The translations under genes and the position numbers were made by a program. This document shows, one piece after another, positions 16,038 to 21,679 of a stretch of 56,048 nt of DNA. The notes beneath the pieces were generated by a model. That model saw only the letters and a program-made list of their open reading frames with translations, made no database searches and was not told the DNA's origin. Within the stretch, counting starts at the first letter, position 1, and each line of letters begins with the position of its first letter. Where the stretch lies: assembly GCA_964590575.1 (NCBI GenBank), contig CAZPWM010000007.1:1-56048 (forward strand). Reading direction: 5' to 3'. This DNA comes from an uncultured archaeon (GTDB taxonomy: Archaea > Asgardarchaeota > Thorarchaeia > Thorarchaeales > Thorarchaeaceae).

Positions 16038-17117
16038 GTGCAAATGCCTGAAGAACGAGAAAGCGAAACAAAAACAAAGAAGATCACATCTCTTCTCTCC
16101 ATCTCTCATGATAAGGATGTGGATGGATTAAACTCTGCCGCCATAGTTTGGAGATATGCAAAAGCAAAGGGTCTCGACTTCAAGGTGGTTCTTACTGATT
16201 ATGGCTCATTTGAACAGGTATTCTCTGCTGTTTCCAGAGAGCGGGATACTCTGATAATCATCACTGATCTTGGTATGGATGACACGACTATTGATGCTGT
16301 ACAAACCGGGCTGGCCAGAGCAATCTCGCAGGGATGCCGGGTAGTATGGCTGGACCATCACCACTGGTCGGATCAATCAATCAAGGTGATTCTCTCTCTT
16401 GGGAACAAACCAGTATTGAAAGTTAATCATGAGTTTTGTGCGGCAGAAATAACTCACAAGGTACTTATGCCGCGCGACGAGGTTTCTGAAGAGCTAGCAA
16501 AGATTGCTCATGATACAGACTTCAACCTTCGAGAAATTGAGGAAGCTACTGCACTCACTGATGCAGTCAGTGTTATTCGCTTCGGCGCTATTGACAAAAA
16601 GGAAGATGTAACAGATACTATCTATCCCCTCCTCACAAAATTGGCTGAAAGCGGGATGAATGGAGTGTGGGATAAAGATACACACAAATTCAAGGACCCT
16701 CTTCTACACAAACGTGTTGATCACTACAGAAAAGAGAAGGCAAAGAAGATGAGGAAAGCTCTCTCTGGACACAATGATCAGGTCATCCATGGAAAACTCG
16801 TACGAATTGTGGAGATTCCGACAGGTGTTACTTCTACAGATATGGGTACTTTCGCTTCAAACCAAGAGAACTTGACCTCTATTGATTCTGAGCTTAGAGT
16901 TGCAGATCTCTTGCTCTCCCTCAGTCAAGGAGGTATGCTTGGCTTTAGGAGAGGCAGTGATGGGGTGCTATGCAATGCAGCGGCGAAAATGTTCAATGGA
17001 GGTGGACATCCGTATGCTGCAGGGGGCGAATATGGTCTCTACGAGGACTTCCAGGCTGTTAGTGATGACATATTTCTAACTCTCTCGAAGAGTAAAGCAT
17101 GGATGTCTGATTCTTAA
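16038..17117 (+). CDS. DHH/DHHA1 family phosphoesterase
   Basis: HDKDVDG, ITDLG, LDHH and GGGHPYAAG motifs. Confidence 0.88.
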   Translation: MQMPEERESETKTKKITSLLSISHDKDVDGLNSAAIVWRYAKAKGLDFKVVLTDYGSFEQVFSAVSRERDTLIIITDLGMDDTTIDAVQTGLARAISQGCRVVWLDHHHWSDQSIKVILSLGNKPVLKVNHEFCAAEITHKVLMPRDEVSEELAKIAHDTDFNLREIEEATALTDAVSVIRFGAIDKKEDVTDTIYPLLTKLAESGMNGVWDKDTHKFKDPLLHKRVDHYRKEKAKKMRKALSGHNDQVIHGKLVRIVEIPTGVTSTDMGTFASNQENLTSIDSELRVADLLLSLSQGGMLGFRRGSDGVLCNAAAKMFNGGGHPYAAGGEYGLYEDFQAVSDDIFLTLSKSKAWMSDS

Positions 17118-18091
17118 ACTACTTCTTTCTCTCTCCGCGTCATCTGATCTAAAACCTGAATAAAATCGAAGCCATCTTCAAATAGCCTGTCAAAGGTTTT
17201 GATTGCATCATCAACGAGTCCGGGATTGTCTCTCCTATGAATAAGAGCTGCAACATTAGACTCTACACCATGAGTTAAGTAGAGAAGCATTTTATCTTCA
17301 TTCAGGCTGACAATTCTGTATGTCTTAATAGGCTCGCGTGTAAATCTAGCTTCAAGATTACCCGTCTTCATAACTTGTGAGAATGCATCAACAATTGGAG
17401 CGACATGCAATGCCATTGTCCTCAGATGGTTACTCTCTTGCCCGGATGGAGTAAGTAGACCCCGAACTCTGACACCCCTGAAACACGTTTCTAGGAGTTT
17501 CAGTTCAGTCACGCCACTTGGTCCTAGTCCATCTTCTAAGGTACTCATGTGAGCTAGGACTCGAATGAGATCGCCTTCCTTTGCTACATCTCCAATCTCT
17601 CGAATAATGGTACTTCTAACATTCTCGATGCCTTCAATCATTACCGATTTATCTATAATGGATTGGCCAGCAAGTTGGTGATGCAACATAAGAGCAAGCT
17701 GTTGAGCTCTGACAGATTTAAGCCGATTGAGTCTAGTCGTCAGCTCTTGCCTCTTTGTCAGACTTTCTGATAACTTATCTTGTCGTTTTGCTTCTAGTGC
17801 TTCTGCTACAACCCCTTCATTGATAGTGTATGTTCTCGGAGTATGAATAGTATCTACGCTGACGAATCCACTTTCTTCCAGATCATGCAATCGTCTGTAG
17901 ATGTATGCTTTTGTATACTTTTTACCGGTGACTAGCTCAAGACTACTTGATATGTTCCCATACTTTGCAGGTTTGTCGGTACCTCCTGCTGCCATGAGAA
18001 TCGCTTGAAATACCTGCATATGACTTGAGGTCATGTCAATACCAAGCCTTTCGAGATTATTTTGGAACTTCTTACCTGCCACAATATTCAC
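17114..18091 (-). CDS. TrmB-like transcription regulator (wHTH + coiled coil + PLD-like effector domain), paralog 3
   Basis: KAYIYRRLHDLEESGFV HTH, coiled coil, C-terminal NPGLVDDAIKTFDRLF. Confidence 0.72.
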   Translation of the reverse strand: MNIVAGKKFQNNLERLGIDMTSSHMQVFQAILMAAGGTDKPAKYGNISSSLELVTGKKYTKAYIYRRLHDLEESGFVSVDTIHTPRTYTINEGVVAEALEAKRQDKLSESLTKRQELTTRLNRLKSVRAQQLALMLHHQLAGQSIIDKSVMIEGIENVRSTIIREIGDVAKEGDLIRVLAHMSTLEDGLGPSGVTELKLLETCFRGVRVRGLLTPSGQESNHLRTMALHVAPIVDAFSQVMKTGNLEARFTREPIKTYRIVSLNEDKMLLYLTHGVESNVAALIHRRDNPGLVDDAIKTFDRLFEDGFDFIQVLDQMTRREKEVV

Positions 18092-19005
18092 CCCTCGAAG
18101 TCTAGTATATCTGTTCCCAATTCATAATCTCTGTCAAAGGCTTTAATGGCGTTGTCAACCAATTCGGGATTGGCACTTCTTGGTATCCACGTTGCTGAGA
18201 GCGGACTCTCAGAAACAATTAGCACAATCCCCTCCGTATTGCGTGCTATGAACTCATAGGTTGAGTCCTTTCTTGGAAAGACTCTGTATCCAACCTTCCC
18301 ACCTGCATCACGCCAATCTTTAATCCTCTTTCTATATCTGTCACGGATTTCCTTCTCGCACCTATTATGATCAATAGATCGGAACTCTATACCTTTTAAC
18401 GCCCAGTTGTCTACGCTTCTCAGTCTTTGTGGGTCCATATAGTCATGTTCGGACAACCACTCCAAGGTGATTCGAATGACGGCGCCCTTCTTGAGACCTC
18501 TGTACACCTTATCATCAAGCAATTTCACAATGTTCTCCCATCCTTGGGCAAAGTCTGGTTTCTCAACTTTCTTTTTCCCAGTTGCAAGGTCAATTACGCT
18601 GGTTGCCATGGTGTCAGAGTTCATATTTGATAGAACGTCCACCTCTGAATCAATCTGTTTAAGCTCTTTTTCAAGTGTCTTAGTACTCTTAGAAATTAAG
18701 TTTACCAGTGCTTTCTCAATAATTGCTATGCTGGATGTATATCCGTGTTTGTGACCCTCCTTGTCAATCCTAACAAATCCCTCTTTTTCAAGCGTAGAGA
18801 GACTCCTGTATATTAGAGAATCTTTCCCTTTTCTTGATCCTTCATCTGAGGCAAGCTGCTTTCGTATAGTTTCGAAATCAATGAAATCGGAGGGTAATTT
18901 CTGCGCCTTGAGCAACGCACCTAGAACAATCATGTCCTTTCTGGTTCTATCTAGCCCAATTATTTCAAACACTTGTTCATGTTGAAATTCGGTTGTCACC
19001 CTCAT
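18088..19005 (-). CDS. TrmB-like transcription regulator, paralog 2
   Basis: SLIYRSLSTLEKEGFV HTH; C-terminal NPELVDNAIKAFDRDY. Confidence 0.72.
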   Translation of the reverse strand: MRVTTEFQHEQVFEIIGLDRTRKDMIVLGALLKAQKLPSDFIDFETIRKQLASDEGSRKGKDSLIYRSLSTLEKEGFVRIDKEGHKHGYTSSIAIIEKALVNLISKSTKTLEKELKQIDSEVDVLSNMNSDTMATSVIDLATGKKKVEKPDFAQGWENIVKLLDDKVYRGLKKGAVIRITLEWLSEHDYMDPQRLRSVDNWALKGIEFRSIDHNRCEKEIRDRYRKRIKDWRDAGGKVGYRVFPRKDSTYEFIARNTEGIVLIVSESPLSATWIPRSANPELVDNAIKAFDRDYELGTDILDFEG

Positions 19006-19022
19006 ACTCCCTCTCTGTCAAA

Positions 19023-20072
19023 TTACCCGCTCTTGTCTTTAGCAAGACTGCTAATTAGTCCTCCGGGTTCTGCACCAAATGATGCCATTTCTTCAGGCGT
19101 CATCTCTAGGAATGATCTAGCCTTCTTCCAGTCCCTATCAAAAGCCTTCACAGCATTATCAATCAGGTCCGGGTTGAAGTCCCTCGTGACCCATGTAGCA
19201 GTAACTGGGTCCTCAGCAATAACTAACGCCATATTGTCCCTGTTTAAGCTCACCTGATTGTATGTTTTTGGACCATCGAAAATCTTAACATCAAACTTTG
19301 CACCTTTCTTTCTTAATTCGCGTACCTGCACCATCAACACAAGTGCTTCCTTGAGATTGAGTGCTGGATCGTCTAGCTCTTTCAGTGTGAAAACGTCCTT
19401 TGATAACATATACCTAACATCTGCTCCCCTCATGGCGGCTTCAACAAATTTTTTGGAACGTTCCACAAGTGCACCATCTATGAAAGGTCCCACCCAAAGG
19501 ACTGTTGCTCGAACTATGTCTCCCTTCTTTGCCACATCAAGCATGTTGAATTTTAAGACCCTATGAAGCTCTTCAACACCACGCACAACACGTGAACTGA
19601 TTTTTTGCTGAGCTCCTGTCACAGTCTTTACTAACTGCTGAGCAAGAATACTACAATCCAATTGAGTAACTTCCTCTAGGGTTTGTACAACCTCATTCTT
19701 TTGAGTTTCAAGCGCAAGAATTCGATCACTCTTTAACTGCTCAAGCCCTGCCATCACAGTGTTTACATCAGCGATGTACTTCTTGCGGTGGGCTGATGGA
19801 TTCTCCACACGTACCAACTGAGATTCCACCAGAGATTTGAGCACTCTATGGACCCATGCTTTTGTTAACTTGGACTGTGGTTCATCTTTTTGCAACTGAC
19901 CATAGATATCTGTAAACGTCAAGGGGATGGGCGGATCGGTTTGGAGTTTGAGAATGATGCTTAACAGATTCATCAGACGGGACTCTTGCCGATCTCCGAT
20001 CATAAATCCACAGAGCTCAAGTGCTTCTGAGAGTCCTTCATCTTCTGTCATAAAACACCCCTCCTTACTCAT
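19023..20072 (-). CDS. TrmB-like transcription regulator, paralog 1
   Basis: KAWVHRVLKSLVESQLV HTH; AAMRGADVRY; NPDLIDNAVKAFDRDW. An alternative start MTEDE at 20051 follows GGAGGGGTG. Confidence 0.72.
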   Translation of the reverse strand: MSKEGCFMTEDEGLSEALELCGFMIGDRQESRLMNLLSIILKLQTDPPIPLTFTDIYGQLQKDEPQSKLTKAWVHRVLKSLVESQLVRVENPSAHRKKYIADVNTVMAGLEQLKSDRILALETQKNEVVQTLEEVTQLDCSILAQQLVKTVTGAQQKISSRVVRGVEELHRVLKFNMLDVAKKGDIVRATVLWVGPFIDGALVERSKKFVEAAMRGADVRYMLSKDVFTLKELDDPALNLKEALVLMVQVRELRKKGAKFDVKIFDGPKTYNQVSLNRDNMALVIAEDPVTATWVTRDFNPDLIDNAVKAFDRDWKKARSFLEMTPEEMASFGAEPGGLISSLAKDKSG

Positions 20073-20083
20073 TTATGAGTAAG
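20064..20083. promoter_or_regulatory. Perfect palindrome, candidate operator
   Basis: CTTACTCAT-TT-ATGAGTAAG (9-bp arms) at the start of the regulator operon. Confidence 0.55.
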
Positions 20084-20132
20084 ACTCTAAAATCATCGAC
20101 TTACTAACTTTATGGCTGTATACAACCACGCC

Positions 20133-20158
20133 ATATATATATGATGTTCATCATATAT
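20133..20158. promoter_or_regulatory. TATA-like element overlapped by a perfect palindrome
   Basis: ATATATAT at 20133-20140; ATATATGATG-TT-CATCATATAT (10-bp arms) at 20137-20158. Confidence 0.55.
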
Positions 20159-20196
20159 CTTTCTCAGCAGTTGTCCGCTGCTAACTCCGGGTGCGG

Positions 20197-20262
20197 ATGC
20201 TTTACGGTAATCCACACAACGGGCATGGTACAGGGCTTGCTGGTGAAACCCATCAGCACTGA
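20197..20262 (+). CDS. Candidate 21-aa His/Gly-rich peptide MLYGNPHNGHGTGLAGETHQH (or part of an sRNA)
   Basis: ATG 20197 to TGA 20262. The stop abuts a strong terminator hairpin and a TATA-like element lies upstream. GGGTG sits only 3 nt before the ATG, which is weak SD spacing. Confidence 0.35.
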   Translation: MLYGNPHNGHGTGLAGETHQH

Positions 20263-20320
20263 AGCAGGGGGCGGGGGGGTGTCCCCTGCTTCTTCTCCTC
20301 CTTGATTCTCTCTTTTTTTA
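20261..20320 (+). terminator. Strong GC-rich hairpin plus pyrimidine/T tract
   Basis: GAAGCAGGGG...CCCCTGCTTC 10-bp perfect stem followed by TTCTCCTCCTTGATTCTCTCTTTTTTT on the + strand. Confidence 0.6.
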
Positions 20321-21547
20321 AAGGCCGCTTACAGCGATTGCTCGAAGATATCCTACACCAATTTTGGCTACCATTGGCAGGAAGTCTGTCATGAGGGTCA
20401 TGATTGTTGCGACGCTTGCGTGTCCCTGGATTAATTCGTTCAGGGTCCTCGCGTCGAGTTGTCCAAGCACTACCTCTGCAGCTGCTATCGGATTGTTGAA
20501 CATGGCGTACTTCGAAACAGCCCACATACCTTTGCCAGTGTTTGTGATATTAGAGGCTAGTTTTGTCTTTCTATACTCTTTCTCATACTCGTAAACACTC
20601 TTCTTAGAGAAATCTCCAGAGTCTGCCATTCTCTTCGCATGCTTTGCGAGGACCTGGCCAGCGTGGAAGCAGGTTGTGACTCCGCCGCCAACAATGGAGG
20701 AGACCTGACCTGCTGAGTTTCCACATAATGCGACACCGGCATCAGTGAATTTTGGGATAATTCCTGCGCAAGGGACCACACCACCATTCACAGCTGTAAT
20801 CTTTGCATTCTGAGTTTTAGGATGGGTCCTCATGTACTTCCTTAGGACGTCCTGCATAGGAGGGAGTGCATACCAGTTGGTCTTTGATGACGGCACACGA
20901 CCTATTCCGAGATTAACCTCTGTTTCAGATCTCGGATACAACCACAGATAACCGAGTCCCACGTCTTTGCCAACATAGAAGTAGGCAACATTCGGGTCTA
21001 CACCTTTACAGTTTGTGAGCTTGAATCTATACCCATAGCTGAGTAGCCACTTTGGATGAGTGAAACCTGCGGATTCAGAAACTCTACTGAAAGAACCGTC
21101 CGCACCCACAGTCAGGTTGGCTCGTTCTTCCTCGTTCTGGTTATACTTAACACCCACTACGGAATTACACTCTTTGATGACAGAGTTAACTCGAGCTTTG
21201 TACCTGAACTCTGCCCCATCTGACAGTGCTCTGTCTCTCAAGAGTTCTTGACACAAGTCCTCGTCGAGGAGGTATGAATTACCAAGCAGGGTTCTATCTA
21301 CGACAATATTTGCTCCTGAGTCTAAGCTCTCTCCAACAATAGAGGTATACTTGTTTCCGATAAACTCTGAATCTGGTTTGACTCGTAGAAAGTTCAAAGC
21401 CTTGTCAGTGCACAATTCTCCCATGAGAGAATGAGTCACTTCCTGACGCTTCTCTAGGACTAGTGTTTTCAAACCATAACTTGCTGTCTTTTCAGCAGTC
21501 ATGAGACCAGCTGGACCTGTTCCAACAATTATCACATCGTGTGTCAT
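20318..21547 (-). CDS. Geranylgeranyl reductase-family FAD-dependent oxidoreductase (non-canonical)
   Basis: DVIIVGTGPAG, VGADG, GYLWLYP, GGVVP, LCGNSAG...GGG motifs. Confidence 0.82.
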   Translation of the reverse strand: MTHDVIIVGTGPAGLMTAEKTASYGLKTLVLEKRQEVTHSLMGELCTDKALNFLRVKPDSEFIGNKYTSIVGESLDSGANIVVDRTLLGNSYLLDEDLCQELLRDRALSDGAEFRYKARVNSVIKECNSVVGVKYNQNEEERANLTVGADGSFSRVSESAGFTHPKWLLSYGYRFKLTNCKGVDPNVAYFYVGKDVGLGYLWLYPRSETEVNLGIGRVPSSKTNWYALPPMQDVLRKYMRTHPKTQNAKITAVNGGVVPCAGIIPKFTDAGVALCGNSAGQVSSIVGGGVTTCFHAGQVLAKHAKRMADSGDFSKKSVYEYEKEYRKTKLASNITNTGKGMWAVSKYAMFNNPIAAAEVVLGQLDARTLNELIQGHASVATIMTLMTDFLPMVAKIGVGYLRAIAVSGL

Positions 21548-21679
21548 CGTAAAGGTGCTCCGAAGTGTTACTCGAGTCCACTATGTAGCATCTATATCTC
21601 TTTCTGAGTGGTGCTTTGCCTCGTCATAAACCTATAATACAAAGGTAAATTTTCAATTATTGACAGACCTCCAGAAGGG

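Follow-up and report, generated by a model that had tools for sequence, protein, structure and literature searches.

Gene Organization of the Locus

The window analyzed here is a stretch of 56,048 nucleotides (nt) from contig CAZPWM010000007.1 of an uncultured archaeon belonging to the Asgard family Thorarchaeaceae. The locus of interest contains three tandem open reading frames (ORFs) on the minus strand, R3, R2 and R1, referred to as the trio, preceded by a gene for a geranylgeranyl-reductase-like flavoprotein. The gap between the reductase gene and R3, the first of these TrmB-fold paralogs, likely encodes an autonomous, structured small non-coding RNA, read on the plus strand from about 20164 to 20313-20319. 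Comparison of related loci shows a conserved, structured RNA on this strand, with signals resembling a promoter and a terminator, and next to it two conserved elements of the trio operon, a control block and a candidate leader hairpin (Table 1).

Table 1. Features of the locus, with positions in the window.
Feature	Position	Strand	Remarks
R1	17114-18091	-	325 amino acids (aa); third trio gene; TrmB-fold paralog; match to R3-ortholog profile, E 1.9e-19
R2	18088-19005	-	305 aa; second trio gene; match to R3-ortholog profile, E 2.2e-19
R3	19023-20051	-	342 aa from the second ATG; first trio gene; predicted winged helix-turn-helix (wHTH), long helix and PLD-like domain
Shine-Dalgarno-like GGAGGGG	20058-20064	-	7-13 nt ahead of the R3 start codon; read from the sequence
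Palindrome 1	20064-20083	-	candidate hairpin of the R3 messenger RNA (mRNA) leader, at its 5' end or close by
Conserved control block	20101-20129		TACTAAC, TATA-like CTTTAT, TGT-N2-ACA palindrome (20117-20124)
Putative TATA box of the RNA	20133-20142	+	left part of palindrome 2; ~25 nt before the first helix
Palindrome 2	20137-20158		putative TATA box of the RNA plus unconserved sequence
Small structured RNA gene	20164-20317	+	~150 nt, both ends putative; covariance model R1, 122.5 bits at 20163-20296
P1	20166-71/20177-82	+	RNA helix
P2	20186-89/20220-23	+	RNA helix
P3	20191-20217	+	RNA helix
21-codon ORF	20197-20262	+	inside P3-P5; ATG 20197, TGA 20260-20262; also called as a 23-aa ORF from a GTG
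Linker	20224-20237	+	single-stranded, conserved
P4	20238-45/20251-58	+	RNA helix
P5	20261-70/20283-92	+	RNA helix; G run of the loop at 20273-20279
CU-rich tail	20293-20312	+	3' part of the RNA
T7 run	20313-20319	+	overlaps the reductase stop codon (20318-20320); read from the sequence
Reductase-like flavoprotein gene	20318-21547	-	convergent with the small RNA; Pfam FAD_binding_3 E 7e-15, GGR_cat E 1.3e-11

The trio genes are tightly packed paralogs, as the initial annotation of this DNA had stated: the stop codon of R2 lies over the start of R1 (4-nt overlap), R2 and R3 are spaced by 17 nt, and pairwise identities are 23-26%. As called, R3 covers 19023-20072. Its orthologs mostly begin at the second ATG (20051), just upstream of which a GGAGG box is present, and relatives carry purine-rich GGAG/GAGG-like boxes at the matching position. 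The second ATG is most likely the true start, and the gap therefore spans 20052-20317 (266 nt).

The gene order R3-R2-R1 is kept in 36 of 40 related loci, the remaining four ending too early. The reductase gene is the upstream neighbour in all 32 loci where it is present together with R3, and at the other end a DHH/DHHA1 gene is convergent with R1. The reductase-R3 gap measures ~235-340 nt in 31 of the 32 loci, even at R3 identities of just 30-40%. The deviating locus (L015:2948-3992) has a gap of 1043 nt, compared with ~260, with ~800 nt extra between the reductase gene and the RNA; there, too, the RNA adjoins R3.

Structure and Conservation of the RNA

In an alignment of the gaps, blocks are found that are better conserved than the proteins. 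A covariance model was built from 18 sequences and a hand-drawn structure of five helices (model R1, a name shared by chance with the gene). In the window and in all 35 loci reaching the upstream DNA, it yields one match per locus, just upstream of R3 and on the opposite strand, with E values at the expected place from 2.7e-33 to 0.56. The five loci without a match lack upstream sequence. A single additional match, weak and on the other strand (E 0.17, in L004), is regarded as spurious. One copy of the RNA is present in the genome of the window.

Base pairing is preserved well beyond the controls. In the model-fitted alignment, 89.6% of the cells are paired, against 78.7% after shuffling, a value not reached in any of 500 shuffles; controls with a slid structure give 33-46%. 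Compensatory changes on both sides were seen in 31 of the 35 base pairs. The sequence-only MAFFT alignment of the 18 sequences, which is free of model-fitting bias, gives 88.2% paired cells vs. 84.6% (0 of 500 shuffles), slid controls of 29-47% and double changes in nine pairs (4 of 500 shuffles). With a plain MAFFT alignment of 32 gaps, RNAalifold recovers only P2 and P5, the other helices being obtained through the hand-made structure and the covariance model. The initial annotation had hesitated between a peptide and a small RNA and had proposed to compare covariation with codon conservation across relatives; across the relatives, substitutions track base pairing and the RNA structure is conserved, which bears out the small RNA.

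The helices are not equally constrained. In P5, the stem is almost invariant and the G-rich loop fully so, and the single-stranded linker, GGGCAUGNUAC, is invariant as well; in all three, the sequence is kept beyond what pairing requires. P4, on the contrary, is variable and dispensable, and is wholly absent in several lineages. A strain variant detected in a DNA run has a P3 shorter by 2+2 nt, two on each side. In the 3' tail, a UCUCUC motif recurs in the window and in relatives. One clade (L019, L022, L023, L025 and L026) has in its tail a C-rich stretch that is complementary to the G-rich loop of its own P5, a hint of a loop-tail pseudoknot there.

Strand, Putative Promoter and 3' End

Read on the plus strand, the 1153 cells of the paired columns comprise 129 G-U but just 23 A-C combinations, and the RNA is therefore assigned to this strand. 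All 32 sequences retain a U-G pair in P2. Upstream, a run of at least six A/T is centred 18-40 nt (median 24.5) before the start of the model in 31 of 34 RNAs; the sequence of the run varies, and its position behaves as expected of an archaeal TATA box. At the other end, a pyrimidine-rich tail comes after the P5 hairpin (20261-20270/20283-20292), and then the T7 run, likely the archaeal termination signal of the small RNA. In 19 of 32 RNAs, a run of at least five T begins within 20 nt of the end of the model. A simple terminator scan reported only the inner part of the hairpin on the plus strand, with two sites compared with 0.9 expected in shuffles. The TATA-like run and the hairpin with its T7 run are present where the initial annotation had placed a TATA-like run and a strong terminator, and the covariance model, the G-U excess and the TATA-like position agree with the hidden divergent gene that it had postulated.

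A set of RNA contigs without strand or end information (run X18) contains, over 18900-21600, one contig of 159 nt (20305-20463) at the reductase 3' end and none over the RNA, a pattern that speaks neither for nor against its expression.

The conserved structure might instead belong to minus-strand transcripts, as the 3' untranslated region or terminator of the reductase gene, or as the leader of a reductase-trio read-through transcript. The block begins right after the reductase stop codon, and no minus-strand T run occurs until 20089-20092, so reductase transcripts may run through it. The helices can form on either strand: the folding energy is -60.4 kcal/mol (z -2.2) on the plus strand and -50.3 kcal/mol (z -2.3) on the minus strand. 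This reading is nevertheless improbable. The G-U and A-C counts point to the plus strand, and the P2 pair would turn into an A-C mismatch in all 32 sequences. The TATA-like box stands at the right plus-strand distance in 31 of 34 cases, plus-strand T runs follow the RNA, and L015 has about 800 nt between the reductase gene and the RNA, which still adjoins R3.

The minus-strand TTTT at 20089-20092, kept in most close relatives, is located between the TATA-like element of R3 and the leader hairpin. Reductase read-through transcripts, antisense to the whole small RNA, could end there.

Palindromes, Candidate Leader Hairpin and Control Block

Both perfect palindromes with TT spacers reported in the gap by the initial annotation are exact (9+2+9 nt for palindrome 1, 10+2+10 nt for palindrome 2). 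They are the only ones in the 56-kb window with arms of at least 9 nt and a spacer of at most 6 nt. As 30 first-order Markov simulations gave a mean of 1.6 such palindromes per 56 kb, their number is ordinary, and just their clustering within 95 nt is unusual. Comparison with relatives does not support a role as plain operators for either. The right arm of palindrome 2 is unconserved, differing at nine sites in a close strain variant, and palindrome 2 was rejected as an operator.

Palindrome 1 is conserved as pairing and not as sequence, with compensatory and G-U changes and, in one clade, swapped arms. Over 27 sequences, it folds with a mean energy of -6.1 kcal/mol when read on the R3 strand vs. 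-4.5 on the opposite strand, the R3 strand being better in 20 sequences and worse in seven. The order on the R3 strand is palindrome 1, a purine-rich ribosome-binding box and the start codon. Most likely, the trio mRNA carries palindrome 1 as a hairpin in its leader, at the very 5' end or close to it.

A DNA operator is a conceivable alternative. The TACT...AGTA arms of palindrome 1 (TACTCA-N4-TGAGTA at 20066-20081) recall the TrmB operator TACTNNNAGTA, a promoter palindrome of the TACT-N3-AGTA type (PMC4158304), and more TACT/AGTA half-sites, together with TGT-N2-ACA, are found in the conserved block. Against it stands the evolution of palindrome 1, which is that of an RNA hairpin on the R3 strand. 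TACTCA-N2-6-TGAGTA occurs at three genome sites, where about 1.5 are expected; the other two adjoin ORFs without a Pfam family and with no further resemblance.

The control block is the best-conserved part of the gap alignment outside the RNA. Its CTTTAT, which is ATAAAG when read along R3, precedes the leader hairpin by about 28 nt. TACTAAC is present in 21 of 32 gaps and TGT-N2-ACA in 29 of 32; in 23 of the latter, the distance to the R3 start is 61-70 nt. The two TATA elements, of the RNA and of the trio, are ~26 base pairs apart and face outward.

The Trio Proteins

No Pfam or NCBIfam family was identified for R1-R3 at E ≤ 0.01. The gathering score of the Pfam TrmB wHTH family is reached by none of the three; at E ≤ 10 only R2 matches TrmB (E 0.11, 12.8 bits vs. 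a cut-off of 25.6), its other faint Pfam match being PadR (E 0.078). Profile searches of the PDB sequences gave no match for the trio proteins. A profile of the three paralogs, searched against 1.84 billion representatives, retrieved only 181 cluster representatives, nearly all similar in length or shorter. The motif NPxL[VI]DxA[IV]KxFDR is common to R1, R2 and R3, as the initial annotation had noticed; contrary to what that annotation had also stated, the proteins do not end in it, and it lies 20-45 residues ahead of the C-terminus.

An AlphaFold2 model was made for R3 from 20 orthologs (mean predicted local distance difference test score 75.5), and the fold of R1 and R2 is assigned by paralogy. 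In the R3 model, residues 96-129 form a long helix, which is preceded by a winged helix at the N-terminus and followed by a PLD-like alpha/beta domain at the C-terminus (about 148-318). It matches full-length TrmBL2 (Foldseek E 1e-9 for 5box; VIA-align Z 12.6-12.8), TrmB (Foldseek E 1.8e-6 for 3qph; VIA-align Z 12.2) and the TrmB effector domain 2f5t (VIA-align Z 12.8, root-mean-square deviation (rmsd) 2.8 over 130 residues). Its C-terminal domain superposes on Nuc, NucT and FAM83B with Z 13 and an rmsd of about 3 Å (VIA-align), and the PLD-fold relatives found include nucleases for single-stranded nucleic acids (PLD3/4, Zucchini and Nuc). The trio is TrmB-like in its predicted architecture, not in sequence-family membership; the designation as TrmB-like regulators thus agrees with the predicted fold, whereas profiles of Pfam, NCBIfam and PDB sequences do not detect TrmB.

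The catalytic motif of the PLD/HKD superfamily is HxKxxxxD. At the HxK position, R3 has Y-N-Q, R1 Y-R-I and R2 Y-E-F, and no conserved His or Lys is found in the three ortholog sets. Because of this, the PLD-like domain of R1-R3 is most likely not catalytic, as in TrmB and FAM83. An I-Y-R motif is (nearly) invariant in the orthologs of R1 (Y65) and R2 (Y66), and an invariant His, H68, is aligned with it in the orthologs of R3; the Tyr of this motif is a candidate counterpart of the conserved Tyr50 in the recognition helix of Pyrococcus furiosus TrmB (PMC4158304). A complex prediction for R1, R2 and R3 together scored 0.40 vs. 0.48 for the control, and carries no verdict on a heteromer.

Distribution of the Trio and the RNA

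The sample comprised 26 other genomes of the window's family and 124 genomes from 26 other families of the phylum. The trio is present in 24 of the 26 and in none of the 124. Three paralog copies are found in 19 of the 24 genomes, four in four and five in one. Genomes with four or more tandem paralogs belong to several genera of the family (G143, G151, G155, G112, G120 and G124), and in G112 two paralogs are apparently fused into one open frame of 656 aa. A genome of the same genus (G087, contig C87:690-3333) has a second set of three tandem paralogs, one with an in-frame TGA, which may be a duplicated or decaying second trio.

The RNA is likewise confined to the window's family, with 12 of 151 genomes in the phylum sample and 24 of 41 in the class sample. 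A metagenome scan was made with the P5 pattern, which is its own reverse complement and thus unspecific; a broader covariance model (R2) matched just three of the 80 loci, weakly.

Two genomes of the family deserve separate mention. In G069, neither the trio nor a recognizable RNA is present. G098, of the same genus as the window and 97% complete, has no trio anywhere in its genome; the reductase gene, the RNA and the DHH gene are consecutive, a TATA-like box precedes the RNA, and the conserved block between the promoters is gone. Since G098 keeps the RNA without the trio, the RNA would be an autonomous gene that does not depend on the trio. The lost block probably belongs chiefly to the trio promoter.

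The RNA could alternatively be a ligand or decoy of the trio: the dead PLD-like domains, whose fold is one that binds nucleic acids, or the winged helices would bind the P5 stem-loop and the linker, and thereby titrate or switch a DNA-binding complex resembling TrmBL2. RNA and trio are equally narrow in distribution, restricted to a single Asgard family, and wherever a locus has both, they are neighbours. That the P5 stem is invariant beyond pairing suggests recognition by a protein, and the PLD-fold nucleases mentioned above act on single-stranded nucleic acids. We consider this reading unlikely, however, because the RNA of the trio-less G098 scores 63.8 bits, not far below the 72-94 bits of relatives of similar divergence, and because TrmB effector domains are known to bind sugars (PMC4158304). 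Its most elaborate form is equally doubtful: RNA and trio would make up a lineage-specific ribonucleoprotein switch. R1, R2 and R3 would form a heteromer whose dead PLD-like domains are bound by the RNA through its P5 stem, G-rich loop and linker, and a TrmBL2-like DNA-coating regulator would thereby be titrated or remodelled. The loop might also mimic a Shine-Dalgarno box. If true, such a switch would parallel, in archaea, RNAs that sequester proteins, such as 6S or CsrB.

Known RNA Classes and Coding Potential

No match among the 4227 models of Rfam 15 was identified in the window at E ≤ 10, nor over the RNA in eight orthologous loci at E ≤ 5. Inspection of the RNA by eye revealed no C/D or H/ACA boxes, no 5S rRNA-like terminal helix and no K-turn. 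In a title- and abstract-level search of the literature on Thorarchaeota non-coding RNA, Asgard small RNA and transcriptomes, and TrmB, TrmBL2 and PLD proteins, the RNA and the trio are undescribed. As far as the Rfam and literature searches show, the RNA represents an undescribed family.

It is very unlikely that it is a diverged member of a described class, such as an archaeal guide RNA or a housekeeping RNA, missed by Rfam in Asgard archaea. Rfam models are built mostly from cultured lineages and can underperform: the signal recognition particle (SRP) RNA of this genome, located on another contig, reaches 83 bits with the archaeal model, below that model's own cut-off of 96.5. The absence of any match at permissive thresholds and of the boxes and motifs sought by eye argues against a diverged known class. 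So does the fact that SRP RNA and RNase P RNA are found elsewhere, the search for the latter, which covered this genome and 20 relatives, having placed it at a different locus in 17 of the 21; and restriction to one family of the phylum is ill-suited to a housekeeping RNA. Within the genus, the archaeal RNase P RNA model has matches in nine of 12 other genomes but none in this 91%-complete genome (G000); in G098, a single contig bears two matches, spaced by 2.3 kb.

Translation of the 21-codon ORF, or of a 54-codon ORF (20141-20305), into a His/Gly-rich signalling peptide, metal-binding peptide or precursor of a ribosomally synthesized and post-translationally modified peptide can practically be dismissed, even though both ORFs exist and 23 of 31 relatives have an ATG aligned with that of the shorter one. 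Among the 31 relatives, insertions and deletions that are not multiples of three disrupt the frame: the aligned segments measure 41-65 nt, the frames differ beyond the first 5-7 codons, and stop codons appear (L009, L013, L017, L037 and others). Substitutions track base pairing and not codons, the ATG has no preceding Shine-Dalgarno box, and the stretch ahead of it forms the paired 5' arm of P3. Hence, of the peptide gene proposed in the initial annotation, what stands is a plus-strand ORF whose stop codon overlaps the first base of the hairpin, and its reading frame is unconserved.

Proposed Function of the Locus

In the reading preferred here, that of an autonomous small RNA gene, transcription would start from the RNA's own archaeal TATA box and end at the T run abutting the reductase stop codon. 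The promoters of the RNA and of the trio operon would stand back to back, with the conserved TGT-N2-ACA segment between them, and a single bound regulator, plausibly a product of the trio, could set both in most genomes. The trio mRNA would begin with the conserved leader hairpin, followed by the Shine-Dalgarno box. The invariance of the P5 stem, loop and linker suggests that the RNA acts in trans, bound to a protein or by base pairing, and would be neither a cis element nor coding. The P5 loop, GGGGGUG, could pair with the anti-Shine-Dalgarno end of the 16S ribosomal RNA (rRNA). The 16S rRNA match in this genome (contig C73:13812-16104, L098) is 2293 nt long, compared with a model of 1478 positions, with about 800 nt inserted (an intron or expansion), and the contig ends before the 16S 3' end.

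Several observations weigh against this reading. The 5' and 3' ends of the RNA, as well as its transcription, are deduced from signals in the DNA only, and the T run is short or absent in 13 of 32 relatives. The strongest pair counts rest on the alignment fitted to the model, and this fitting may also inflate the G-U excess. With the speed filters of Infernal on, model R2 finds the RNA in just 19 of 41 family genomes. A further 13 loci, 12 of them from genomes unmatched in that search, are only weakly matched with the filters off; 11 of the 13 have matches at the expected place (E 0.00027-0.15), and for the other two the best match at any position has E 0.49 and 2. As for a partner, complements of the linker and of the P5 loop occur 30 and 49 times in the genome at up to two mismatches, without a pattern at gene starts or ends, and no target or partner was found among them. 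The control and promoter blocks are unique in the genome at up to two mismatches, and no regulon was found in this way. Finally, the retention of the RNA in the trio-less G098 makes an obligatory functional link between RNA and trio unlikely, and the loss of the inter-promoter block there means that this block may serve the trio promoter only.

Asgard archaea are the closest prokaryotic relatives of eukaryotes, and almost nothing is known of their non-coding RNAs or gene regulation. The locus adds a strongly supported new family of structured RNA and a new, lineage-restricted TrmB-fold family that always comes in tandem, here as a trio. With their common compact and conserved divergent promoter region, they offer a concrete regulatory unit that can be put to the test in an uncultured lineage. 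New Thorarchaeota genomes can be annotated for the RNA with the covariance model, and each component (the DNA fragment, the RNA and the three proteins) is open to production and in vitro assay.

Comparison with Known Systems

The order of domains in TrmB is wHTH, coiled-coil helix and C-terminal effector domain (PMC4158304). The predicted structure of R3 has the same order as TrmB and TrmBL2 (Pfam PF01978 and PF11495; 3qph, 2f5t and 5box). Unlike these, the trio has no link at the sequence level (Pfam and NCBIfam at E ≤ 0.01, PDB by profile), and its genes always stand in tandem, three or sometimes four, in one Asgard family only. Moreover, the identity among R3 orthologs, 40-80%, is unusually high for a regulator. 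With the PLD/HKD superfamily (Nuc, Zucchini, PLD3/4 and the DUF1669 domain of FAM83), the trio shares the fold of the C-terminal domain, whereas HxK is lacking in R1-R3.

The RNA resembles small RNAs of Rfam 15 in its size, its multi-hairpin build and its strong final hairpin with a U-rich tail, and differs from them in matching no family. In bacteria, pairs of a regulator gene and a divergent small RNA are exemplified by oxyR/oxyS, gcvA/gcvB and sgrR/sgrS. In comparison, the promoter pair is here of the archaeal TATA type, the operon encodes three paralogs, regulation is a proposal, and one genome (G098) retains the RNA without the proteins. Like in these pairs, the RNA gene and an operon for DNA-binding proteins diverge from a short shared region with a conserved palindrome.

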